Source: Pyrobaculum aerophilum str. IM2
Lineage (GTDB): Archaea; Thermoproteota; Thermoprotei; Thermoproteales; Thermoproteaceae
Assembly (NCBI RefSeq): GCF_000007225.1
Contig: NC_003364.1
Coordinates: 90,001-122,000 of the forward strand
Direction: 5' to 3'
DNA length: 32,000 nucleotides
In this document: positions 3,587 to 19,311 of the stretch, piece by piece
Layout: each line of letters starts with the position of its first letter
How positions within the stretch are numbered: position 1 is the first letter of the stretch
The notes under the pieces: model-generated
What the model was told of the DNA's origin: nothing
The model's input: the letters and a program-made list of their open reading frames with translations, nothing else
Databases searched by the model: none
Made by a program: the position numbers and the translations under genes

Positions 3587-4363
3587 GTGAGAGAGGCGGG
3601 AGCCGCCAATTTAAAAAACCCCTTTGTAAAAGCGCTTTATACAGCGCTGAGGGCCAGAGGGATAATAGACGATGAAGGCCGGGTTAAGAAAGAGGTGAGC
3701 CGCCCAGAGATGCCCAAGGGCCTCTACGCCAGGGAGTGGGTAGAGATGCACAAAAACTTCAACGAAATAGGGGCGGTTAAAGTGGCGAAAGACGAGGCGG
3801 ATAGAAACGCCCTAGACCTCTTCTACAGCGACATACAAATCCAGGGCTGGCACAGAATAATGGTAAAGGCCTTCCTAAAAGCCGCCGGTTTTACAGACGG
3901 CCTACGCGTCTTAGAGCCCTACAGCCGCGAGGGGCATCTGGCCGTGATAATACACGACGAGTACAAGCCCGCGGCGTATTTAGGCTACGACCCAAACCCG
4001 GACTACGTCCAAGTGGCCAAGTCCATGGCCCCCACGGCCCAGTTCACAGCCGCCCCAACCGCCTGCCACCTCACCGGAACATACGACGTGGCAATCCTCG
4101 TTGAGAAAATGCAGTGGATGGCAGACCCCCTCTACGAGCTGGAATGCATAAAAAAGTTGCTCAAACGCCCCGGAGGCCTCTTGTTAGTAGCCCAGCCAGT
4201 GGCCGAGTCCATGCCGGGCTACCTCGCCATTTTATCCGCCATAGGGGCGCGCCAAGTATACACTTGGCGAGAGGCGGAGAACATACTGAAAATGAGGTTC
4301 AAACTGGCCAAGAGGCTAATACGCACCCTGCCCTTTTACGGAGCCGTATTTGAAAACCCCTAA
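3587..4363 (+). CDS. class I SAM-dependent methyltransferase-like protein; probably extends to ATG 3457 across a frameshift
   Basis: Methyltransferase-like motif series: LRVLEPYSREGHLA (degenerate motif I), YLGYDPNPDYVQVAK, YDVAILVE, LKRPGGLLLVAQP. The frame is open upstream to 3506. See the finding on the G11 tract. Confidence 0.55.
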   Translation: MREAGAANLKNPFVKALYTALRARGIIDDEGRVKKEVSRPEMPKGLYAREWVEMHKNFNEIGAVKVAKDEADRNALDLFYSDIQIQGWHRIMVKAFLKAAGFTDGLRVLEPYSREGHLAVIIHDEYKPAAYLGYDPNPDYVQVAKSMAPTAQFTAAPTACHLTGTYDVAILVEKMQWMADPLYELECIKKLLKRPGGLLLVAQPVAESMPGYLAILSAIGARQVYTWREAENILKMRFKLAKRLIRTLPFYGAVFENP

Positions 4364-4404
4364 AAACGCGCCGATATAGCCGGCGCCTGCAACACGCCGA
4401 CAGC

Positions 4405-5193
4405 CTAACCCCGGTCTGTAGCGCCGGGGCACTCCAGCGGCGTCACCCTCACGGCCCCAAGCCCCATGCCCCTCCCAGTCCCCACGTTGAACACCTCGGC
4501 CACCCTCAGAGCCCTCCACACGTCCGCCAGCCTCCTCCTCCCGAAGGCGCGGTAGAGGGCCCACCCCACGAAGCCCCTGGCCACGCCGCCGCCCAGCAAC
4601 TTCACAGTCCTCACGCACTTCCCCCAGCAACCGAAATCAGTCAAAGCCACGTATGTATAAACCCAGCGGAGGAAGGGCCCGCCGAGGCGCAGAAGCCCCA
4701 AGGCCCTCCCTTGCCTTACAGCTGACTTGAAGAGGTTCAGCGGCCTCGGGGTGAAGTCAAAGAGGGCGCGCCTCCTCTTGTAAAGAGGCTTGACGGCAAA
4801 GCGGGTGGGAGACAGGAACTCCACTTTAAAACACGGCGTGGAGGGCAACGGCTCGCTGGAGACGTCCCTAAACTCAAGCTCCGCCAGCTCAAGCGGCTTG
4901 CCGAATAGAGTAACGCCGCCGCTGAGCGAGTCCACAAAGCGAAGCGCCAGCAACTCGTCGGCAAAGCCCACGCGGAACTCCACCTCAGTCCCCTGCCCCA
5001 GGGCGGCGCCGTCTAACACGGGCCTCCCCCCGGCGAATAGGGGGGAAACGGCAAAGGGCTTGGGCTTGGCGTCGTGAAGCCATCCCCCCAGTCTAGACAC
5101 CACAAGAGACTCCACCAGAGTGCCGGAAAACCCAGTCAACACCACTCCCCCGGCCAGCCTGCCCAGAACTCTAACTCTCCACACAGCCCGCAC
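4405..5193 (-). CDS. cas6: Cas6 CRISPR repeat endoribonuclease (copy 1)
   Basis: 262 aa with the C-terminal glycine-rich loop GTGRGMGLGAV typical of Cas6. GTG start. It is divergent from, and directly adjacent to, the CRISPR leader. It is a paralog of ORF 21770..22546. Confidence 0.8.
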   Translation of the reverse strand: MRAVWRVRVLGRLAGGVVLTGFSGTLVESLVVSRLGGWLHDAKPKPFAVSPLFAGGRPVLDGAALGQGTEVEFRVGFADELLALRFVDSLSGGVTLFGKPLELAELEFRDVSSEPLPSTPCFKVEFLSPTRFAVKPLYKRRRALFDFTPRPLNLFKSAVRQGRALGLLRLGGPFLRWVYTYVALTDFGCWGKCVRTVKLLGGGVARGFVGWALYRAFGRRRLADVWRALRVAEVFNVGTGRGMGLGAVRVTPLECPGATDRG

Positions 5194-5530: not shown

Positions 5531-8500
5531 GAATCTCAAAAAGAGGATTGAAAGTATTCAGAGTACTCTAGGCCGGTATACAGAGGGCCTAAAAGAATCT
5601 CAAAAAGAGGATTGAAAGAACACGTCAGCCAGCCCTCCCCATGTGGCCCTGGCTGTACACAGGAATCTCAAAAAGAGGATTGAAAGAAAATTTGTAAAGT
5701 TAGAGATAGCGAGCCGCGAATTGAGAGCGGGAATCTCAAAAAGAGGATTGAAAGTCTTCGGACAATGACGCGCTTAGAATGGGCGATTTATTCAACACGT
5801 ACAGAATCTCAAAAAGAGGATTGAAAGCAATTACTCTTAATTCAGAGTCTCCCTCACAGACGGCAAAATACTCAGAATCTCAAAAAGAGGATTGAAAGAT
5901 GTTAATTGAAGGGCCTGAGAACGCTGTTCAGTTCATTCTCAATGAATCTCAAAAAGAGGATTGAAAGCGTCTTTCTTCTTCGACACCTTGATGTTCAACG
6001 CCTCTACAGGAATCTCAAAAAGAGGATTGAAAGGTTCTAAATATACCGACGGCCGCGACATTTACTAATTCTCTGAAGAATCTCAAAAAGAGGATTGAAA
6101 GTTATATACTTGGATCTGTACGTCCCCTTCCGTATATACACCCTGCCGAATCTCAAAAAGAGGATTGAAAGTTGACAATTCAGCCCAAAGTGTAATCCGT
6201 TGATATGGTCGGGAATCTCAAAAAGAGGATTGAAAGTCGGTAAATTAGTCAGTGAGAGCTTGTTAGGTATACTCCCCCCTTCCGAATCTCAAAAAGAGGA
6301 TTGAAAGATACTAATTGTGGCGGGGTTCAACCGTCAGCTGTTCCAGGTGAATCTCAAAAAGAGGATTGAAAGGTCCGCAGTCAACAGCCAAAAAGAGGGG
6401 GAAATAAACGGAATCTCAAAAAGAGGATTGAAAGCTTTATCAACGTAGACCCTTTTGTATATCAAGCTCTTTCCGAATCTCAAAAAGAGGATTGAAAGCA
6501 GGTAGAGGTGCGGTTCAACAACGTTGTTGGCCACGTGGACTTTTTTGAATCTCAAAAAGAGGATTGAAAGTGGTTAATTCCAAGCTGAGGCAGGTCTGTG
6601 GACCCGAATCTCAAAAAGAGGATTGAAAGCCCGCGGGCCCCGGCCGCGCCAGCGGCCACCTTGTTTTTGTTGTGAATCTCAAAAAGAGGATTGAAAGGCG
6701 CCGTCCATGCGAGCACGGGGAAGACTGCCGAGGGGTCGAATCTCAAAAAGAGGATTGAAAGATTATCTTGACTAGCATCGCCACGGCGGCGAGCCCTGCG
6801 AGCTGAATCTCAAAAAGAGGATTGAAAGATCCTAGGCATTGGGATGTACACTGCGATTTCCCCCTGCGGAATCTCAAAAAGAGGATTGAAAGAGAGTCCC
6901 TCCAGCTCCTCGAGGGCGGCGCACACTACGCACATGGAATCTCAAAAAGAGGATTGAAAGTGCTGTCTGGAGTTTCGGTTGTGCTGGCAGCTGTCTTTGG
7001 CGCCTGAATCTCAAAAAGAGGATTGAAAGGCTGTATGGAGAGCCAATGCGCATGCGGCGTAAGACTGTATATACGAATCTCAAAAAGAGGATTGAAAGGC
7101 AAAAGGCCTGCGGAATAGCCAGCCATCCCCCCGCCTGGCGGAATCTCAAAAAGAGGATTGAAAGCCTCAATTCGTCTACCATGGTCTCAGGGTCGATAAT
7201 AAACTTCTGAATCTCAAAAAGAGGATTGAAAGAGCTTTTTAAGGGCCTCATTTTTCTGGGCCTCAGTAATAAAGCGAATCTCAAAAAGAGGATTGAAAGT
7301 ATGCGTTGACCCGGGGCCCTACACAGCTCTCCTACTTACCGAATCTCAAAAAGAGGATTGAAAGATGCGTATCATATACGCCGCACCCGCACAAACTAAT
7401 AACCGCATTGAATCTCAAAAAGAGGATTGAAAGATACGGTGTACTGCAACGGCCGCGATTTGACTGAATGTACAAAAACCGGAATCTCAAAAAGAGGATT
7501 GAAAGTAGGTACGTATTTGAGGCGGTCTGCCCTCTGTGCGTGTCCAGTGGAATCTCAAAAAGAGGATTGAAAGGGGAGGCTCAGCAAACAGGACACACAG
7601 CTTCCTGGGTACCCGGAATCTCAAAAAGAGGATTGAAAGGCCACCTGCTTAGCCGCCTCCTTCGCCCTCTCAGCCCGGCTGGCCTCCGACGGGAATCTCA
7701 AAAAGAGGATTGAAAGCGGTGGCGGTGTACCAAATGTTCTACCTAGCCGGCGTCCAGCCGCCGGAATCTCAAAAAGAGGATTGAAAGATTTTTCAGTTCT
7801 CCCGCCGAAGTGCTTGAGATACTCGCAACCGTGAATCTCAAAAAGAGGATTGAAAGCTAGACGGAACTCTCACCAGCTCCTCCTCGGCGCGCTTGCGCGC
7901 CGAATCTCAAAAAGAGGATTGAAAGCTATTCCAGTGGCGAACTCGGCCGATATCCTAAGCCCTGCGAGGAATCTCAAAAAGAGGATTGAAAGCAGTTGGG
8001 ACATGTTTGAGAAGGAGCTGGCCAGGGCTAGGAGTGCTGAGGAATCTCAAAAAGAGGATTGAAAGGTACGGATACAGCGCCACTGCTTGCAGCGGCGCGT
8101 CTACGCCGTTGAATCTCAAAAAGAGGATTGAAAGTCGGCACTGGGATCGTCCTGGCCATAGTCGGCATTTTCATGGGGAATCTCAAAAAGAGGATTGAAA
8201 GCGCGTTCTCGACACTGTGATGGATCTGATCCGCATGGATGCAGTGGGAATCTCAAAAAGAGGATTGAAAGACTCGTTGCCCAGAGAGCGCCTCTGGAAC
8301 CTAGCCAGCACCGAATCTCAAAAAGAGGATTGAAAGCACAATTGCGAAAAACGCGGCCCATTTGTATATAGCTCTCCCCGAATCTCAAAAAGAGGATTGA
8401 AAGCTAATTTCAGTGATAAGTCCATACGGCCCAATTTGACGACATAAGAATCTCAAAAAGAGGATTGAAAGGCGAGGAGATTGCGCAGGAAGAGAACTCC

Positions 8501-11005
8501 TGCAAGCGCCGTTGAATCTCAAAAAGAGGATTGAAAGAACTATATAACAAAACTAGAGCCGCTGTTGAGGAAGGCTAAGAATCTCAAAAAGAGGATTGAA
8601 AGCTTGAACTCAACGTCTCCAAGCATTTGTTTATACACGAGCACGCGGGGGAATCTCAAAAAGAGGATTGAAAGCGACGCCCGTATCGTCTACTTTCACG
8701 GCGGGCTTCTTGACAACGGGAATCTCAAAAAGAGGATTGAAAGCACTATTTTGAAGAGTGGCATGTCCATTTTGGCGTCTCTCTTTGAATCTCAAAAAGA
8801 GGATTGAAAGGTGCCCCCTCGTGGCCCGGTACCGGGCCCTGACGGCCGCGAGAGAATCTCAAAAAGAGGATTGAAAGCGCTGTCCCAGTTGCGGCGGGTT
8901 GGTGTTGGCGGTCGGCGGAAGAATCTCAAAAAGAGGATTGAAAGAGCCGCGGCGCCTCTTCACGAGCCCGATGGCGGCGAGCTGCCGAATCTCAAAAAGA
9001 GGATTGAAAGGAAAAACAAACCTTTTTCAAGAAACTACACCAGGCCCTATAGGGGCCAGGAATCTCAAAAAGAGGATTGAAAGCTGAGTTGACTGATAAG
9101 TTCATACGGCCCAATATGACGACACGAATCTCAAAAAGAGGATTGAAAGCCTCAAAGCCGCTACAATAATCATCGAGGAGTATTCAAAAGAAGAATCTCA
9201 AAAAGAGGATTGAAAGTTGAGACTGTGGAGTTCGACATGGTGCGAACAGTGGCTGGTCTCGAGAATCTCAAAAAGAGGATTGAAAGTTTACCTATGTTGA
9301 AACTGATATGCGACTAGTGGACTGTATGGAATCTCAAAAAGAGGATTGAAAGTGTCCAATGAGCACATCTTCAATAGAGGCACCTCTATGCGGAATCTCA
9401 AAAAGAGGATTGAAAGAATACGCCTTCCTCGACTCGTGGTCGGCGTAGCACATAATCGTCGAATCTCAAAAAGAGGATTGAAAGAAGATTTTAGTCATCT
9501 CCTCCGCCACCAGGAACACTATCCTTGCGGGGGAATCTCAAAAAGAGGATTGAAAGCGGGAGATTGGGCAGGTTCGCCGCCTATGGGGACAATATCATCT
9601 TGAATCTCAAAAAGAGGATTGAAAGTATCTAAATCAGCTTGTGCGTGGCTTGATAAGCAAAAACATGCTGGGGAATCTCAAAAAGAGGATTGAAAGGTGA
9701 CGTCTAGATTGGGCAGGAGTGTTTTAGCCCTCTCCCCCGCCGAATCTCAAAAAGAGGATTGAAAGTGTACTGCTGAGTGGCGTTTATCTTGACGGCGATG
9801 TAGGTCTCGGTGAATCTCAAAAAGAGGATTGAAAGAAGATCCTCAAGCCACACCACTCTGCCGCAGAGCGGCGTCCCTGGTGAATCTCAAAAAGAGGATT
9901 GAAAGTTCTGCCTTTCGGGCACCCTTCTCATTTGGCCCCGCCCGAAGCGAATCTCAAAAAGAGGATTGAAAGTCTGGCGAGAACTGTGTAACGACTACTA
10001 CCACACAGCCACAGGGAGAATCTCAAAAAGAGGATTGAAAGGAGGTATACTCGGCGGCGTATACATATATAGCCCTAGAGCGCTGAATCTCAAAAAGAGG
10101 ATTGAAAGACCATCGTGGAGTGCCAAGTTCGCACCCATCGAATTTACACTAGGAATCTCAAAAAGAGGATTGAAAGAAGCACGATTTGACAAAACAAGGT
10201 AAAGGGACTTGGGTTCGCCGTGAATCTCAAAAAGAGGATTGAAAGGTCCCTATACCCTGCTCCGTCCCAGTCTGTAGATGGGTCCTTGAATCTCAAAAAG
10301 AGGATTGAAAGCTGGCGAGATTGATGTTAGAGCACGCGGACGCCGTTATTGAAATACTGAATCTCAAAAAGAGGATTGAAAGGCGTTTTCATCAACAACA
10401 ACGCCCCCGTACCACTCAAGAATAATAGAATCTCAAAAAGAGGATTGAAAGGTTCAATACGTTTGAAGTTGTCTGCAATTTCCTGAACGGCCCTAGAATC
10501 TCAAAAAGAGGATTGAAAGTCTCTGTCTCGTACCTTGTAAATGTATGGCGTCTTCACAACCTGAATCTGAATCTCAAAAAGAGGATTGAAAGGTAAAAAC
10601 TATATTAACATGCCCAAACGTTATGACCGCCGTGAATCTCAAAAAGAGGATTGAAAGTGGACATTTTCGCCTCTGCTTCGGGCCCATATGATTGGACGAG
10701 AATCTCAAAAAGAGGATTGAAAGGTGGCGTTGATCTCCGCCCCGAAGCCCATGCGCGCCCCCAGCTCGGGAATCTCAAAAAGAGGATTGAAAGACACTGC
10801 AGTACCGTGCTTACATGGAATATAGAAGTAGCGCTTACCGAATCTCAAAAAGAGGATTGAAAGTCCGGCACCCTCCCAGTGTGCCTCTTCATAAGGGCGA
10901 TTAGGTAGATGGCCCGAATCTCAAAAAGAGGATTGAAAGGATCTTCGCGCTGAACAGGCGCAACATGTTCTCGCTGAGTTCGAATCTCAAAAAGAGGATT
11001 GAAAG
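5531..11005 (+). CRISPR. CRISPR array: 81 x 24-nt repeat GAATCTCAAAAAGAGGATTGAAAG with 80 spacers of 35-53 nt
   Basis: I located every repeat by reading the sequence, from 5531..5554 to 10982..11005, and noticed no variant copies. The repeat 3' end ATTGAAAG is the 8-nt crRNA 5' handle known for archaeal type I-A/III systems, which implies + strand transcription. Confidence 0.98.
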
Positions 11006-13682: not shown

Positions 13683-14288
13683 ATGCGCCTAGCAGTTACT
13701 GTGGGGTTTGACGCACGGCTAGTTGTAAGAGCCTTGGCCAATATACCGGCGCGCGAAGTAACCCTCGTACGCGGTGCCACGGGCAACGAAGGCGACGCCA
13801 AGTCCAAGGAGGCGGTAGCGGAGATTATAAAGGCTTTAGGCAAAGGCACTGAGTATGTAGTAAATCTCCGCGATCCTGCAGAGGGCTTACGGCAATTTTA
13901 TTCTCTCCAATTCGATGAGATTGCTCTAGCTGGCGGCCCCCGACTCCTCATATTGCTGGGATTTGTTGTTGCAGCGTTGAAAAAGGCGAGGATATTCGTG
14001 GTACCCGAATACAGTAGTGAGGCGATAGACGTCAGCGGACTTGCCGCAGTAACAAAACTTTTTGGGCTGTCTAGAAGAAAACTGGAAATTCTCGCCGTTT
14101 TGGACGGCGAAAAAGATGTCGATACTATTGCACGAGAAGTGGGGCTGGACAACTCCACCGTATACCGCCATTTAGTGACTTTAGAGGAGGAAGGCTTAAC
14201 AAAGAGTGTGGGTAAAAGGGGAAAAAGATACCACACTGACAAGCTGATTTCGACACTTTCCTCACTAATCTTAAAGACGGAGCCATGA
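13683..14288 (+). CDS. csa3: Csa3 CRISPR-associated transcriptional regulator (CARF + winged HTH)
   Basis: The N-terminus MRLAVTVGFD is typical of Csa3 CARF domains. The C-terminal wHTH is LEILAVLDGEKDVDTIAREVGLDNSTVYRHLVTLEEEGL. I prefer the ATG at 13683 over the GTG at 13647. Confidence 0.8.
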   Translation: MRLAVTVGFDARLVVRALANIPAREVTLVRGATGNEGDAKSKEAVAEIIKALGKGTEYVVNLRDPAEGLRQFYSLQFDEIALAGGPRLLILLGFVVAALKKARIFVVPEYSSEAIDVSGLAAVTKLFGLSRRKLEILAVLDGEKDVDTIAREVGLDNSTVYRHLVTLEEEGLTKSVGKRGKRYHTDKLISTLSSLILKTEP

Positions 14289-14863
14289 AATGCCCCTGTA
14301 TTGCGAGAGTTTGCCGAGATGGTGAGGAGAGGCTATCTTCAGAGTCACATGGGGGTATAACACACTCCAACACAGACAAACATGACATAAAGATTCCTCT
14401 GTCTAAAACTCTGTATCTTCGATTGCCGTGTATGGAGCTCCACGATTGCAATGTAAAAGAACACTACAGTAGAATTGTATATGACTATGATGTCGTTAAT
14501 TGTTGCAATGAATGTTGCAAAGGGAATGCACTAGTCGATTGTGTGTTGAAATGTAGTGATAAGATGGTAGGCATTGAGTTTAAAGGATTATGCAAAGAGG
14601 TCATGCGCATCGACGGTCAGAGGGACAAGGATCTGTCAGAGGAATTATGCAGGTATATTACTGAAAAGTCTGAGCAAAAGAAGAAAGTAGGTTGTGGTTT
14701 AGCCGTAGATAACATAGCAGTAATATTTGTTAGCTCTCACCTATATTGGTATATGTTTGCCTTGAAATGTTTTAATAAAGAAGTCAAGATTGTTTCTCTA
14801 CGTAATATTTGTAATGTAACTAGTAATTTGTGTGAAGGGGGAATTTTCTTTGCTAAATTATGA
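14285..14863 (+). CDS. cysteine-rich hypothetical protein with PD-(D/E)xK-like motif
   Basis: 192 aa with 17 Cys, including CCNECC (73-78). Contains D85-x12-E98-F-K100 (LVDCVLKCSDKMVGIEFK). Its ATG overlaps the csa3 stop (ATGA). By eye, the lowest-GC segment I noticed. No family recognised. Confidence 0.5.
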   Translation: MKCPCIARVCRDGEERLSSESHGGITHSNTDKHDIKIPLSKTLYLRLPCMELHDCNVKEHYSRIVYDYDVVNCCNECCKGNALVDCVLKCSDKMVGIEFKGLCKEVMRIDGQRDKDLSEELCRYITEKSEQKKKVGCGLAVDNIAVIFVSSHLYWYMFALKCFNKEVKIVSLRNICNVTSNLCEGGIFFAKL

Positions 14864-15754
14864 AATCTTTATTATTTTAACGCCGTATATTGCAGCAATA
14901 GTTTCTGTATATGTTTCAATATATGCCGTAAGTGGGCTATAGCGTTCTGCTTTTCTATCCTTAATAACATATAATACCGAATCCGCCTCAACACTTATAC
15001 CTTTAACTAATTCACTCATTCGGCGAGGACGTGCTATCATATCTACGAAAAAGACATCGTGTGTGGATGCTATTACGTATTTGCCACAACTGGCAAGGCG
15101 GTGGATAAGATATGCCATAAGCGCCTTTGCCATTGGGTGAAGACCTGCTTCGGCATCGTCTATTAGGATAATATCATAATCGTCAAGAAGCCCTCTGTTC
15201 ATAGCGGCTAGCAACACGCCGAGTTTCACTACAGCAGTAGAAGAGTGGATAATATCTATTAAATCACCGTCTAATTCTTCGCTGAGTTTGAGACCAGTAG
15301 GTACTACTTTATACTCGGTCTCAACTACTAAGGGGCACTTTGGCTTGCGTGTGAAACGAATCTCTAATAAGTTTAAGAGCTGATTGAAAGAGTAGTACGG
15401 CTCGTAAGGAGGTACAAAATGGTGTTTTACAATTGTCTCAACCTCGTTTGGGAAGAATAGCGTGTTTAGACTAAGCGATCCCACAGCTGTGCACTCCTCC
15501 TTAGAGCAATGTACCTCTAGCTCTTCATTGCCCCTTTTGGCTTGGAGGAGCGTCCACTCTTCAGCGCGTTTGATTGTCTGTGTTATGAGTATTAGATCTT
15601 TCGGCACACGGCCCTCCCTCTTGAGGTAGAAGGCGTCGTAAATTAGCCTAAGGAGTGTAGTCTTCCCCGACTTGGGGGGTCCGAGCAAGAGCGTAACCGG
15701 GGCCAGCTCTAGCTCCACTTCAAGTCTTCCGGGCAGGTTTATTTTAATTTCCAT
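14858..15754 (-). CDS. ABC/SMC-like (AAA_21-type) ATPase, not a core Cas protein
   Basis: Walker A GPPKSGKTT, Walker B-like IILIDDAEAGLHP, H-loop-like IASTHD. Its start lies 16 nt inside the 3' end of cas8a2 on the same strand. Its stop codon abuts the stop of ORF 14285..14863. Confidence 0.8.
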   Translation of the reverse strand: MEIKINLPGRLEVELELAPVTLLLGPPKSGKTTLLRLIYDAFYLKREGRVPKDLILITQTIKRAEEWTLLQAKRGNEELEVHCSKEECTAVGSLSLNTLFFPNEVETIVKHHFVPPYEPYYSFNQLLNLLEIRFTRKPKCPLVVETEYKVVPTGLKLSEELDGDLIDIIHSSTAVVKLGVLLAAMNRGLLDDYDIILIDDAEAGLHPMAKALMAYLIHRLASCGKYVIASTHDVFFVDMIARPRRMSELVKGISVEADSVLYVIKDRKAERYSPLTAYIETYTETIAAIYGVKIIKIS

Positions 15755-16782
15755 GTAAATAGAATTTCAGCTAATATATCAACTTGTCTCCAATCCTCGG
15801 CGCATTTACCACTAGTAGATAGAGCCCTCACTACGGTGTATTCATCGCCGCCGAACAACACGACCTCGGTTAGTTGCGCTAATATCTCGGGACCTTCTAA
15901 GGCTAGGCATTCTACAAATTTAGGCCATCCCCTCGTCTTGTTCTTGACCTCGGCTATGAACTCCATTATTCTGCTTAGATCGAGCGCCATCGCGTCGGTA
16001 ACCCGTTGGAAGTTCCCACGCTTCTCGGTTACCCATACCAAAATGTCCAGAGATTCCTCCGTGGCGTATAGGGTCTCTCCGGTTGAGAGCCAGTAGAGGG
16101 GATAGGCCAGTGTGGGCATCTCCTGGCTCCTGACGAGATAACCCTCCGTTAGTCTCTGGAGGAGAGCTAGGTCGGCTATAGATATGCGCCCTCTTGGCGC
16201 TGGTGTCAGCTGCACTACCCTCCTCCCATCACGTGTGATTATGACTATTGTAGTCGCTCCGTATAAAAAGCCTATATTCAAGTAGGCGAAACACGTATGA
16301 CAAACGCCGAAAGCCTTATTCTCTTTTGCCACTCTGTTTTCAATAAAATACTTACCATATATCGGCGACAGCGTGAGGTATACCGTAGACAGCCTTCTGG
16401 AGGCTGTCCTTCCCTCTCTGAATTTCGCCTTGTGGTCCAGGGTAAATACGCTGAGTTCCGCGTTCACCAATGCCTCGCTGAGCTGGGCGAGCCAGCTTCT
16501 CGTCGCGCTGATGTTTATGTTGGCGTCAAATATCTTGCGGAGACGGCCCACGGGCTCTTCTCCATCTACGACGTAACGCTCTATTTCGAACAAGAGGAGC
16601 TCAACGGATTCGATATCGGCCAAGGCTCGGGGTTCGCCCTCGAACGATATCTTGTACCTCTCGCCCAGCCTTTCGACGTATCCCTCGACGATGCCGGAGG
16701 CCGCGAGGTGCCTCACAACGCCGTGCATTATCAATGTGTCGGCAAATACGTCGTGGCCCGGGGTGTATATCTCCTTCAACAT
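15739..16782 (-). CDS. cas8a2: Cas8a2 (Csa4/Csx9) large subunit of type I-A Cascade
   Basis: Called mainly on position (downstream of cas3'') and size (347 aa from MLKEIYTPGHD), plus an internal CHTC motif and LSPIYGKY. The ORF track's upstream Met at 16875 would overlap cas3'' by 100 nt. Confidence 0.6.
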   Translation of the reverse strand: MLKEIYTPGHDVFADTLIMHGVVRHLAASGIVEGYVERLGERYKISFEGEPRALADIESVELLLFEIERYVVDGEEPVGRLRKIFDANINISATRSWLAQLSEALVNAELSVFTLDHKAKFREGRTASRRLSTVYLTLSPIYGKYFIENRVAKENKAFGVCHTCFAYLNIGFLYGATTIVIITRDGRRVVQLTPAPRGRISIADLALLQRLTEGYLVRSQEMPTLAYPLYWLSTGETLYATEESLDILVWVTEKRGNFQRVTDAMALDLSRIMEFIAEVKNKTRGWPKFVECLALEGPEILAQLTEVVLFGGDEYTVVRALSTSGKCAEDWRQVDILAEILFTWKLK

Positions 16783-17543
16783 AGCTCCCTCCTCAGCGCC
16801 TCTACATCTAAGGGCTCGGCCCCCTTCAGTGCTAGATCTACGATTTTTGTCCCTTTCTTGTCTCTCTCGTCGCATCCGCAGAGCGACCTACCCACGTGGG
16901 CTGCCACCGAGTCTGAAACTACAAGGGGGTACAACACAGCTGCCGCCTTAGCCCTCATCGCGTGTAAACGCGCCGAGTCTCCGACGGCGGTCTGTACAAC
17001 TATCTCCTTAACTACCTCAAGCATATCCCGCGGCGTTAACCCGCCGTTACCCCAGCGCTCTAGCTCCTTCTTTAACTCGGGGTACTTATTTACCGCATCG
17101 CCTGCCTCGGCCAGCGGGTCGCAGGCTGGGGAAAGGTCATGTTCTTCCAACATCTTCCTCACGGCATATATGGGCAGATACCTCTCGCCGAGCCCTGAGA
17201 TATATGCCGAGGTCAGTATCGGCTCGTGGTGAAGGAGGACGGCCGCGGCGACCACCGCGGCGATCTCATCCCCGACGACGGGCTCTAGGCCTTTGTAGGC
17301 GAAGTAGGCGCTCACCACTTCGTGCGTATATTCCCCTCGCCTCCCTACCTGGTACGCCTTGGCTAGCTTTCCCAAGTCGTGGACTACTATGGCATATTCC
17401 ACGACGTCTAAATCAACCCCAATAGCTCTTCTAACCGCCGGGAAGTATATGGGTCTCAGCTTTTCCCACACCGTCAGGGCCCTTTTAATATGGCGTCCGT
17501 ACTCCTCAACGCACTGGTCCCCTTTCCAAGCGTGACACGTCAT
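16776..17543 (-). CDS. cas3'': Cas3'' HD-domain nuclease
   Basis: HD motifs IVVHDLGKLAKAYQ and VLLHHEP. 255 aa. Located between the cas3' helicase and cas8a2. Confidence 0.85.
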   Translation of the reverse strand: MTCHAWKGDQCVEEYGRHIKRALTVWEKLRPIYFPAVRRAIGVDLDVVEYAIVVHDLGKLAKAYQVGRRGEYTHEVVSAYFAYKGLEPVVGDEIAAVVAAAVLLHHEPILTSAYISGLGERYLPIYAVRKMLEEHDLSPACDPLAEAGDAVNKYPELKKELERWGNGGLTPRDMLEVVKEIVVQTAVGDSARLHAMRAKAAAVLYPLVVSDSVAAHVGRSLCGCDERDKKGTKIVDLALKGAEPLDVEALRRELC

Positions 17544-17625: not shown

Positions 17626-19311
17626 TTAGTCCAGCTTCGTCGTAGCCCTATCTACGTCGTCGCATAAGATGACAAGCGAGCCTTCGCGGATCCACTCGCG
17701 TGTGCTTACGCGGTTCCAATTATTGAATTTTAATTTTTCGTCGTCTCTCTCCAGTCCGCCCTTTTCGCAAGAGTCAAATAAACCAAGTATGTTTTCGAGC
17801 CTATCCAGACGCCTATAAGAGAAGGAGATCCTCATCCTCCGCCTCAAGAGCTCTTCTCGACTTATTAACAACTCTTTTGTTTCTTTATCCACATCCTTTG
17901 TCGTTAGGAGGTATAAGTCGACGTATAAAGATGGCTTGATCTGAGGGTGAGTCTCAGGTGGTAGAGAGTAGAGGTGGAGGTTCTCCAGATAGTCGAGAAA
18001 CTGCACGTAAAGGCTATCGCCTTTCTTCGACATATCCTCCACTATCTTTTCGTCATAAACTTCATCCAATAGCTCGCCCAGCTTGGCCGCGTCACCCAGC
18101 ATTTTTTCAAGCGAGTCCAGCTTAGGCGCAGTCTTCTCCAACAAATCCTTCCTATAAGGCTCCGGCCTTTCGGGCTGGAACACCAGGATTTCCGCCGGAT
18201 CTCCCCTCCTCCCAACCCTGCCAATTCGCTGAATCAAGCTGTCCAGAGGAGACAGGTCTGTGTATAACCGAGTGAAGGAGTAATCGATTCCAACTTCTAG
18301 CGTCTGAGTGCCCACGACTATAGCCTCGTTAATTCTTTTTTTCTCCTCCAGCTCCTCAAGCTCTCTGAGCGTTCTCTCGCGATCTCCTCGGGTTAGCAGT
18401 GAATGAAGAACATATATTTTCTTTCCTTTGCATTTTTCCTTTAAGTCTTTGTAAAACCTCCTAGCTCTGGGCACCGTATTGACTATTATCAATGCGCCTT
18501 TAGAGCAATCTACGTCGTTTGGAGTCAACTCGGCTTTTCGGAACTCTATATTTACTTTTCTCGGCCTGCTAGATAGGATGCGTTCCTCTACGGTCGCACA
18601 TCGGCTCTTAAACTCTTTGATAAATGCCGTAGGTAGAGTAGCCGAGGAGAAGACCACGTAGGCGCCAGCGTTGACCAAATAGCATATAATTCTGGCCAGC
18701 GCCCTGGGCCCTAGGTAGACCTCGTCTTGCACTAAGTGGGCTTCGTCGAAGACCGTGATTGCGTGCATCATAAGCCCCACGGGCATCGTAAACCTGCCCG
18801 TCAAGTTGCCGCGTTCAATCCATTTATCCACCCTTTGGGCTAGGTATGCATAGGCATAGGAGTCCACTGTTGTGAGGGTAATCGGCGCTGTGTAGAGGTA
18901 GGTCGGTCTTTTGACTTCACCGTGATCTTCCTCCACTTTTACTCTAAAGGCTTTGCCGTATGTTCCAAACCGCTTTGCCATCTGCTCCAAGAGGGCATGG
19001 ACAGGCTCTACTACGTACATGCGGCCGGTGTGCCATACACCGCTAGCGACTTGATAGAAGTAAAGAGATGCGAAGATTTCAGTCTTGCCCGCTCCAGTCG
19101 GCGCCTTAAGCAACACAAGCCTTCCACCGCCGTTGCGGTAGAAACCCCGGAGTATTTCCGCCGCTATCTCTGCTTGTCGACGCAACGCCTCCTCATCTAC
19201 CTTGACTTCCCTTTTATTGGCCCTTTGCCACGCCTTTATCAAGTCTTTGACGATTTCGGCTACCTTCTCGACTTGTACGTCACCAGTCATGACCCGCAGG
19301 AAACGCGACAT
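17626..19311 (-). CDS. cas3': Cas3' superfamily 2 helicase
   Basis: Walker A APTGAGKTE, DEAH box VFDEAHL, SAT motif (SSATLP), motif V GTQTLEVGIDY, motif VI QRIGRVGRRG. Confidence 0.9.
   Translation of the reverse strand: MSRFLRVMTGDVQVEKVAEIVKDLIKAWQRANKREVKVDEEALRRQAEIAAEILRGFYRNGGGRLVLLKAPTGAGKTEIFASLYFYQVASGVWHTGRMYVVEPVHALLEQMAKRFGTYGKAFRVKVEEDHGEVKRPTYLYTAPITLTTVDSYAYAYLAQRVDKWIERGNLTGRFTMPVGLMMHAITVFDEAHLVQDEVYLGPRALARIICYLVNAGAYVVFSSATLPTAFIKEFKSRCATVEERILSSRPRKVNIEFRKAELTPNDVDCSKGALIIVNTVPRARRFYKDLKEKCKGKKIYVLHSLLTRGDRERTLRELEELEEKKRINEAIVVGTQTLEVGIDYSFTRLYTDLSPLDSLIQRIGRVGRRGDPAEILVFQPERPEPYRKDLLEKTAPKLDSLEKMLGDAAKLGELLDEVYDEKIVEDMSKKGDSLYVQFLDYLENLHLYSLPPETHPQIKPSLYVDLYLLTTKDVDKETKELLISREELLRRRMRISFSYRRLDRLENILGLFDSCEKGGLERDDEKLKFNNWNRVSTREWIREGSLVILCDDVDRATTKLD

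Follow-up and report, generated by a model that had tools for sequence, protein, structure and literature searches.

ORF192 of a Pyrobaculum aerophilum type I-A CRISPR-Cas locus belongs to an ATPase-paired accessory family with a possibly nuclease-like core

We analysed a segment of 32,000 nucleotides (nt) of a Pyrobaculum aerophilum-type chromosome, called the window throughout, which carries a type I-A CRISPR-Cas locus. The subject of this work is ORF192, a small open reading frame (ORF) of 192 codons that sits between csa3, the gene of a CARF regulator, and the gene of an ABC-type ATPase. Judged by its conservation, ORF192 is very probably a genuine protein-coding gene and a member of a small-protein family. 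The conserved link of the small gene is with the ATPase, not with the CARF protein; its coupling to csa3 is real but confined to one subclade. We consider it likely that the small protein and the ATPase are functional partners. The composite statement, that the family is an ATPase-paired accessory module in type I-A loci with a nuclease-like effector, is modestly favoured by the data, and nuclease activity of the small protein, taken by itself, is put forward only tentatively. The features concerned are the following.

13683..14288, plus strand: csa3, CARF and winged helix-turn-helix (HTH) regulator (TIGR01884 Csa3, E 8.8e-51; PADLOC CARF3, E 8e-93).
14285..14288, plus strand: ATGA start/stop overlap of the csa3 TGA with the ORF192 ATG, from the window sequence.
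14285..14863, plus strand: ORF192, cysteine-rich small protein of 192 amino acids (aa) with an ATG start, from ORF statistics, homologs, alignments, substitution ratios and synteny.
14327..14407, plus strand: hydrophilic insertion 1 of ORF192, residues ~15–41, from alignments, boundaries approximate.
14603..14677, plus strand: hydrophilic insertion 2 of ORF192, residues ~107–131, from alignments, boundaries approximate.
14858..14863, both strands: TTATGA, 6-nt tail-to-tail overlap of ORF192 and the ATPase gene, from the window sequence.
14858..15754, minus strand: ABC-type (OLD / AAA_15 / AAA_21-like) ATPase of 298 aa, exact match to AAL62624.1/PAE0204 of P. aerophilum IM2.

The start of csa3 at 13683 was taken from the 201-aa gene call in near-identical relatives (L001); the frame is open from GTG 13647. 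An earlier note on this DNA, made from the sequence alone, had described an ORF at 14285–14863 on the plus strand that shares ATGA with the csa3 stop and encodes 192 aa with 17 cysteines, a CCNECC block at residues 73–78 and the spaced motif LVD85...E98-F-K100 (D85-x12-E98). All of this was recovered on re-reading the sequence. The cysteines are residues 3, 5, 10, 49, 55, 73, 74, 77, 78, 86, 90, 103, 122, 137, 162, 176 and 183, compared to ~6.8 expected from base composition. The same note had called ORF192 the most AT-rich coding stretch, and the lowest-GC 579-nt stretch of the 32-kb window (0.345) is indeed located there, the next lowest (0.39) being in the CRISPR array. The GC of the gene as a whole is 0.38 against 0.535 for the window. 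At the composition of ORF192, the probability that 192 codons contain no stop is ~2e-7, and the other five frames hold 4–25 stops. The ratio of non-synonymous to synonymous substitution rates (dN/dS) in the family is 0.09–0.30 for homolog pairs with unsaturated dS, and therefore the family is under purifying selection.

At the 3' end, TTA followed by TGA had been read correctly, but the two stop codons do not abut with zero intergenic bases as had been stated. Counting stops, the genes overlap by 6 nt: TTA 14858–14860 codes for Leu192 of ORF192 and, read on the other strand, is the TAA stop of the ATPase gene, and TGA 14861–14863 is the ORF192 stop. At the 5' end, the N-terminal motif M-x-C-P-C-x-x-R is kept in diverged homologs, and in the family loci examined the small gene begins with an NTG that overlaps the TGA of the gene before it, which is the ATPase gene in 8 lineages and csa3 in 4. 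Because both the motif and the NTGA overlap are conserved, ATG 14285 is favoured over Met50, the alternative start that the earlier note had named. The overlap with csa3 is ATGA in the window and L011 and GTGA in L012 and L013, where gene callers chose a later start; ATGA overlaps with the ATPase stop were read in L002, L004, L005, L007 and L009. Such a constant start/stop overlap, whichever the upstream gene, suggests selection for translational coupling as such, and given this overlap ORF192 can be co-translated with csa3.

The family was collected by an exhaustive HMMER search of 1.84 billion representatives followed by two profile searches. The exhaustive search returned seven true relatives of ORF192, and the profile searches enlarged the family to ~15 clusters of 113–161 aa; a word-index protein search with the single ORF192 sequence found only a 98%-identical cluster. 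All the named sources belong to Thermoproteales (Pyrobaculum oguniense, Pogu_1141; P. neutrophilum; Thermoproteus tenax; and metagenome-assembled genomes, MAGs, of Thermoproteus, Pyrobaculum and Thermoproteaceae), and the remaining members come from hot-spring metagenomes. Searching phage genomes by tblastn gave no match, so a viral or anti-CRISPR origin of the small protein is unsupported; a scan of viral contigs also gave no locus.

In the numbering of the window protein, the conserved columns are C3-P4-C5 and R8; H53-D54-x-N56-E57-x-x-H60; C77 and C78 (C-x-C in most members); L83-V84-D85-C86 and C90; G96-x-E98-F99; K133-x-x-G136-C137-G138; and C176 and C183. Asp54, Asp85, Glu98 and Phe99 are invariant in the 15 aligned members, and Asn56, His53, His60 and Lys133 are nearly so. 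Nine of the 17 cysteines of ORF192 are family features, and several of the conserved ones are lost in the T. tenax and P. neutrophilum branch. Disulfides are common in cytoplasmic proteins of P. aerophilum; the cysteines of ORF192 may form disulfides, or else bind Zn or Fe-S. ORF192 is longer than its relatives because of the two hydrophilic insertions, which all other family members lack; the second of them falls between the ExK strand and the conserved K-x-x-G-C-G motif.

We examined the gene neighbourhood in 12 lineages (window/L001, L002/3, L004, L005/6, L007, L009, L011, L012, L013/14, L016, L017 and L018). In all 12, the small gene directly adjoins an orthologous ABC-type ATPase gene inside a type I-A cas locus. 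Two architectures were observed.

Architecture A (8 lineages): cas8a2, ATPase gene and small gene in this order, co-directional, with ATGA overlap; Thermoproteus sp. (L002/L003), a Thermoproteales MAG (L004/L008), two JGI metagenome contigs (L005/L006), a Thermoproteaceae MAG (L007), a Pyrobaculum sp. MAG (L009), an ENA metagenome contig (L016), T. tenax Kra1 (L017) and P. oguniense TE7 (L018).
Architecture B (4 lineages): csa3 followed by the small gene, which converges on the ATPase gene with a 6-nt tail overlap; the window with its near-identical relatives (L001, L019–L022), L011, L012 and L013/L014.

The tail overlap is kept throughout architecture B (CTATAG in L011, TTATAA in L012, CTATAG in L013/L014), and the final Leu codon changes together with the stop codon of the ATPase gene, TTA going with TAA and CTA with TAG. 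Csa1, Cas1, Cas2, Cas4, Csa3, Csa4, Cas3, Cas5 and Cas7 flank the small gene in the window and related loci. The ATPase orthologs beside the small-protein homologs are 26–74% identical, with conserved Walker A, Walker B and H-loop motifs. A profile search of genome contigs with the ATPase alignment returned at least three relevant loci, and a metagenome scan one. The earlier note had proposed an ATPase-plus-nuclease module embedded in the I-A locus and had asked after csa3-adjacent orthologs. Such orthologs exist in three further diverged lineages (L011, L012 and L013), and the pairing with the ATPase is borne out in 12 of 12 lineages; the nuclease part of the proposal is tentative.

In the Thermoproteales MAG L004/L008 (6045–8342), we observed csa3, a 125-aa csa4 fragment, the ATPase gene and the small gene, followed by HEPN/nucleotidyltransferase toxin-antitoxin pairs; cas7, cas5 and cas3 are absent from this neighbourhood. 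As the pair is kept there, it can outlast the loss of Cascade genes. In T. tenax Kra1 (L017), two short ORFs of 217 and 145 aa lie directly downstream of the small gene (8505–9510, minus strand). The 145-aa ORF has weak AAA_15/AAA_23 matches, and these may represent a second, split ABC-type ATPase.

In Pfam, the window ATPase scores just below the cut-offs of AAA_15 (E 6.8e-7, 29.7 bits against 32.1) and AAA_21 (24.7 bits against 27). Its PADLOC matches are HEC-02A (4.8e-11), NsnB (8.5e-10), mad8 (5e-9) and AriA (9e-9), as well as PD-T4-4_A, PtuA, GajA and Old, and its best sequence match in the PDB is an OLD-family nuclease (6p74, 9.7e-5). Its best PADLOC matches are thus ATPase components listed for defence-system models. 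In this it resembles the two-gene modules of ABC ATPase and nuclease (PARIS AriA/AriB, Septu PtuA/PtuB and OLD/Gabija GajA), and the window ATPase too has a partner, a small overlapping gene whose product has a nuclease-like acidic motif. The differences from these systems are that no family member matches Toprim, HNH or DUF4435, that the Pfam scores of the window ATPase stay below the family cut-offs, and that the pair, instead of standing alone, closes a cas interference operon in which it is embedded.

We propose the following mechanism. The small protein would be a partner or effector subunit of the ABC/OLD-like ATPase. Its acidic site would bring together Glu57 from a helix, Asp85 from where a strand begins and Glu98 from the strand paired with it in a hairpin, and Lys100 (or Thr) or Lys133 may complete it. 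Such a site would probably hold a divalent metal and would most likely cleave nucleic acid much as a minimal PD-(D/E)xK-like nuclease does. Disulfides between the conserved cysteines (CPC, CxC, C86, C90, GCG and the two C-terminal ones), or a metal bound by them, would stabilise the fold. If ABC-ATPase/nuclease defence pairs are a guide, the activity would be gated or delivered by the ATPase and would supplement Cascade/Cas3 interference. In the clade of the window, the position behind csa3 would tie synthesis of the small protein to the CARF regulator, without making it a CARF-activated enzyme.

The structural part of this proposal comes from the AlphaFold model of the homolog P0020 (predicted local distance difference test score, pLDDT, 80.6; predicted template modelling score, pTM, 0.79). 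In this model, the conserved Glu is in helix 28–36, the Asp stands immediately before strand 57–60, and E-F-K is at the end of strand 66–72, the two strands being linked by a 5-residue turn. As modelled, the Asp/E-F-K hairpin has the canonical PD-(D/E)xK hairpin geometry. In Hjc, the corresponding residues are E12/D42/E55/K57, with a D-to-E spacing of 13, the same as that of D85/E98 in ORF192. The likeness of the family to Hjc-type resolvases and to Cas4/Csa1 thus consists of a helix Glu, an Asp at a strand start, E-x-K 13 residues further on and a hairpin partner strand. Several of the conserved cysteines are reminiscent of the cysteine clusters of Cas4 and Exo5; their pattern (CPC, CxC, GCG), however, differs from the Cas4 pattern C-x(n)-C-x2-C-x5-C. 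Among the weak Foldseek matches of the P0020 model, the top ones in the PDB are mostly PD-(D/E)xK proteins (YaeQ, ACE1/Cas4, EcoO109I, AvaII, AdnAB, Exo5, TnsA and NucS), and those in BFVD include VRR-NUC, RecU and Holliday-junction resolvases.

A number of observations weigh against the nuclease assignment. Of the 15 members, 8 have Lys at position 100, the third residue of ExK, and 7 have Thr there. Scans of ORF192 and all 15 aligned members against Pfam, NCBIfam, PADLOC and PHROG gave no match, and nothing meaningful turned up when the family profiles were searched against PDB sequences. In the P0020 model, the helix leads to the Asp strand with no further strand in between, although the canonical fold puts beta-1 at this point; the Foldseek search with this model gave no significant match (best E 0.07–0.15, TM score ~0.2). 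The AlphaFold model of ORF192 itself, built on an 11-sequence alignment, reached a pLDDT of 36. Comparison of the family by hhalign with Cas4 and Csa1 alignments derived from the loci gave no signal (E 0.64 and 0.47, respectively); the best fragment aligns VEFK with IEFK of Csa1 (E 0.47). Finally, the only published label of the family is "RRM". Relative to the minimal PD-(D/E)xK nucleases, the family therefore differs both in the Lys-to-Thr change in half of its members and in the lack of any significant sequence, profile or structure match. The PD-(D/E)xK-like core that the earlier note had seen survives in part: Asp85 and Glu98 are invariant and are placed on a hairpin after the Glu helix, while the lysine and the profile and Foldseek matches do not bear it out. 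We have not filed the small protein as a PD-(D/E)xK member, a nuclease fold being plausible and unproven; the conserved core, however, resembles a metal-dependent nuclease site more closely than it does an RRM.

Three other readings of the sequence were rejected. Taking the H-D-x-N-E-x-x-H motif for an HNH or beta-beta-alpha-Me site fails, as the His-to-Asn spacing is far too short and there is no HNH profile match. An HD domain does not agree with the beta-rich model. A transmembrane segment at residues 141–163 does not agree with the short beta-strand of the homologs at this place.

The family is already present in the literature. The catalogue of Vestergaard, Garrett and Shah (2014) lists, among type I-specific accessory genes, a "Cas ABC ATPase" with 5 members (example TTX_1256) and a "small RRM protein (sRRM)" with 4 members (example TTX_1257); sRRM is given there as always paired with the Cas ABC ATPase, and its RRM label as derived from profile-profile analysis (PMC3973734). 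In T. tenax Kra1, we read the order csa3, csa5, cas7, cas5, cas3, HD gene, csa4, a 285-aa ATPase and a 146-aa protein, CCC81892.1 (P0030). The latter matches the ORF192 family profile with an hhalign probability of 97% (E 4e-11) and ORF192 itself by BLASTP (E 7e-5). Judged by the gene order and by Table 5 of PMC3973734, CCC81892.1 is almost certainly TTX_1257. The ORF192 family was therefore catalogued in 2014, as an uncharacterised one, and ORF192 is an atypically arranged, largely unannotated member of it. The statement of the earlier note that the protein belongs to no named family holds for the curated profile libraries and fails for the literature, which has had sRRM since 2014 (PMC3973734).

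The 2014 pair and the window pair are alike in that both are placed after cas8a2 in a Thermoproteales type I-A cassette and their ATPases are orthologous. Set against the catalogued family, ORF192 is longer (192 aa against 138–161), far more AT-rich, convergent to the ATPase gene, overlaps the csa3 stop instead of the ATPase stop, and is not called in NCBI annotation. The exact ORF192 protein was not found in NCBI sources. In the NCBI-annotated MAG L020 (GCA_013329805.1), an intact 192-codon copy is present at 3898–4466, yet the annotation leaves the interval from csa3 to the ATPase gene empty. The cas gene list for P. aerophilum given by Bernick et al. (2012) goes from PAE0202 to PAE0205 (PMC3396285). 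An unannotated small gene in P. aerophilum is consistent with all three of these observations, and 5 ATPases against 4 small proteins in the 2014 table would fit it as well. The annotation applied to L020 appears to miss the small-protein family systematically. Our literature searches found no experimental work on the ATPase/small-protein pair, those for PAE0204 giving only unrelated Pseudomonas papers. In vitro, T. tenax Cascade has been put together from six Cas proteins (PMC4005679), and this fits an accessory, not a core, role of the pair.

The alternative that survives best, which we nevertheless regard as doubtful, takes the "small RRM protein" label at its word: the small protein would be a non-catalytic nucleic-acid-binding or adaptor subunit that recruits the ATPase to RNA, DNA or Cascade, or tethers it there, and itself cuts nothing, and its acidic and His residues together with the cysteines would bind a structural metal. 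This is the sole published annotation and is based on profile-profile comparison (PMC3973734). The unconserved ExK lysine and the lack of a nuclease profile match are in its favour, and the order beta-alpha-beta-beta-...-beta of the P0020 model could be ferredoxin-like. However, none of the 15 members has an RRM-type or ferredoxin-like Pfam match at E up to 10, so that the published label found no support here. PD-(D/E)xK nucleases lead the top ranks of the Foldseek matches, and the sole RRM-type protein among them is the Cas6-related 3ufc at rank 21 (E 2.3). Moreover, an invariant set of D/E/D/E/N/H residues is more what one would look for in a catalytic metal site than on an RNP surface. For neither fold did a match reach significance.

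Another alternative accepts that the family is functional elsewhere and holds the window copy to be a decaying or inactive remnant. We judge it unlikely, somewhat more so than the adaptor reading, and several observations do count against an intact function of this copy. ORF192 is 44–50% identical to its subclade-B homologs, compared to 63–75% for csa3 and the ATPase; it has thus diverged about 2-fold faster than its neighbours, whereas among the other subclade-B homologs all three genes diverge at similar rates. In its lineage, the GC fell from ~0.53 to 0.38 and the two insertions were gained. The common P. aerophilum-like allele (L019 and L020; P0003, on 12 contigs) has S37/E57/V87. The window allele alone has Ile37 and Val57, and has thereby lost the Glu that is present in the other 14 of the 15 aligned members. 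All three differences between the window and L001 in ORF192 are non-synonymous.

Close relatives also carry broken alleles, so the window copy may be weakened or inactive. In L022 (ERZ1669369), a T is inserted after codon 55 (+1; window ~14449), and only a 106-aa C-terminal fragment is called. In L015 (GCA_009889515.1), a 1,063-bp deletion corresponding to window 14673–15735 has taken out the entire ATPase gene together with the last third of the small gene, at its 3' end; the remnant, joined directly to csa4, carries P4L and two in-frame deletions (Y66 and NECC). These natural deletion and frameshift alleles indicate that the ATPase/small-protein module is dispensable. We count the loss of both genes in a single event as support for their forming a module.

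The interference helicase gene of the window is altered as well. Window cas3 (17626–19311, minus strand) has one base fewer at ~17645 than L001 and the other near-identical relatives; its product has a different C-terminus and is shorter, with 561 aa where those relatives have 590, and the gene no longer overlaps the HD-nuclease gene (16776–17543) as it usually does. This one-base indel may be a strain-specific frameshift, and it would suit a locus in decay.

On the other side, a frame of 192 codons is open in very AT-rich sequence, which argues that ORF192 was functional until recently. All the other family-conserved residues are intact, as is the common allele with its Glu57. In the near-identical genomes, the rest of the cas locus has a non-synonymous to synonymous ratio that is equally high (8–9 non-synonymous against 8 synonymous changes), so the three changes in ORF192 are by themselves no sign of decay.

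That the small protein is a CARF-controlled effector, with Csa3 as its primary partner and activation, be it direct or by way of expression, by cyclic oligoadenylate (cOA) as in Can1, Can2 and Card1, is very improbable. The earlier note had pointed to CARF control of effectors such as these three. The NTGA overlap with csa3 is kept in four diverged lineages, and the type III-A system described for P. aerophilum could supply cOA (PMC3396285). Can1, Can2 and Card1 resemble the present case in the proposed nuclease fold and in the presence of a CARF protein nearby in the genome. In those proteins, however, CARF and nuclease are fused in one polypeptide that serves type III signalling, whereas ORF192 has no CARF domain match and Csa3 is a separate protein. 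In 8 of the 12 lineages, the small gene is coupled to the ATPase gene and stands behind it, not behind csa3; adjacency to the ATPase is universal and adjacency to csa3 is not. Csa3 is also a CARF-HTH transcription factor (PMC6546367) and not an allosteric partner of separate enzymes. The weakest alternative, that ORF192 arose by chance or from misannotation of an AT-rich spacer separating csa3 from the ATPase gene, has on its side the missing gene call in the otherwise identical MAG L020, the absence of the exact protein from NCBI sources and the lack of a match in any curated family library, and on the sequence record it is refuted by conservation and purifying selection, with diverged homologs that keep the motifs in 12 lineages and an open frame that chance would hardly leave.

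The remaining features of the locus are as follows.

5531–11005: CRISPR array of 81 repeats (Rfam RF01354, CRISPR-DR45), adjoining the adaptation genes.
15739..16782, minus strand: csa4/cas8a2 (Pfam Cas_Csa4, E 7.6e-125), start according to the 347-aa call in relatives (L001).

The adaptation genes cas4, cas2, cas1 and csa1 are on the minus strand of the window and csa3 is on the plus strand. Past csa3, the minus strand carries csa5, cas7, cas5, cas3, the HD gene, csa4/cas8a2 and the ATPase gene, the last of which overlaps the end of cas8a2 and runs downstream of it in the same direction. A 311-aa ORF is open at 16297–17232 on the plus strand, opposite csa4 and the HD gene; most likely it is an artefact of GC-rich antisense sequence. 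The Rfam scan of the window found CRISPR repeats only, and no RNA in the ORF192 region.

The practical gain from this analysis is modest: the annotation is corrected, and a few residues and constructs are singled out for testing. The best-behaved candidates would be the shorter orthologs of T. tenax, P. oguniense and Thermoproteus sp., not the aberrant P. aerophilum copy. One extension of the preferred reading we hold to be quite improbable. In it, the effector would have an unrecognised minimal PD-(D/E)xK-like fold, stapled by metal or disulfides and undetected by current profiles; with its gene relocated behind csa3 in the P. aerophilum clade, its dosage would follow the CARF regulator and, through it, type III cyclic-oligoadenylate signalling, and the ATPase would stay under the control of the Cascade operon. 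If this were true, the csa3-linked effector and the Cascade-operon ATPase would together keep a toxic nuclease behind a safety switch with two inputs.

CRISPR loci of hyperthermophilic archaea hold accessory genes of obscure role, and the present pair had been left in the 2014 table without follow-up. What is new here is that the family is real, under purifying selection, restricted to type I-A loci of Thermoproteales and strictly coupled to the ATPase; that the P. aerophilum copy is uncalled in the NCBI annotation of a near-identical genome; and that natural knock-out alleles exist. The testable hypothesis that results, while work on bacterial ABC-ATPase/nuclease defence pairs is under way, is that the pair may serve these archaea as an ATPase-gated nuclease add-on to Cascade.

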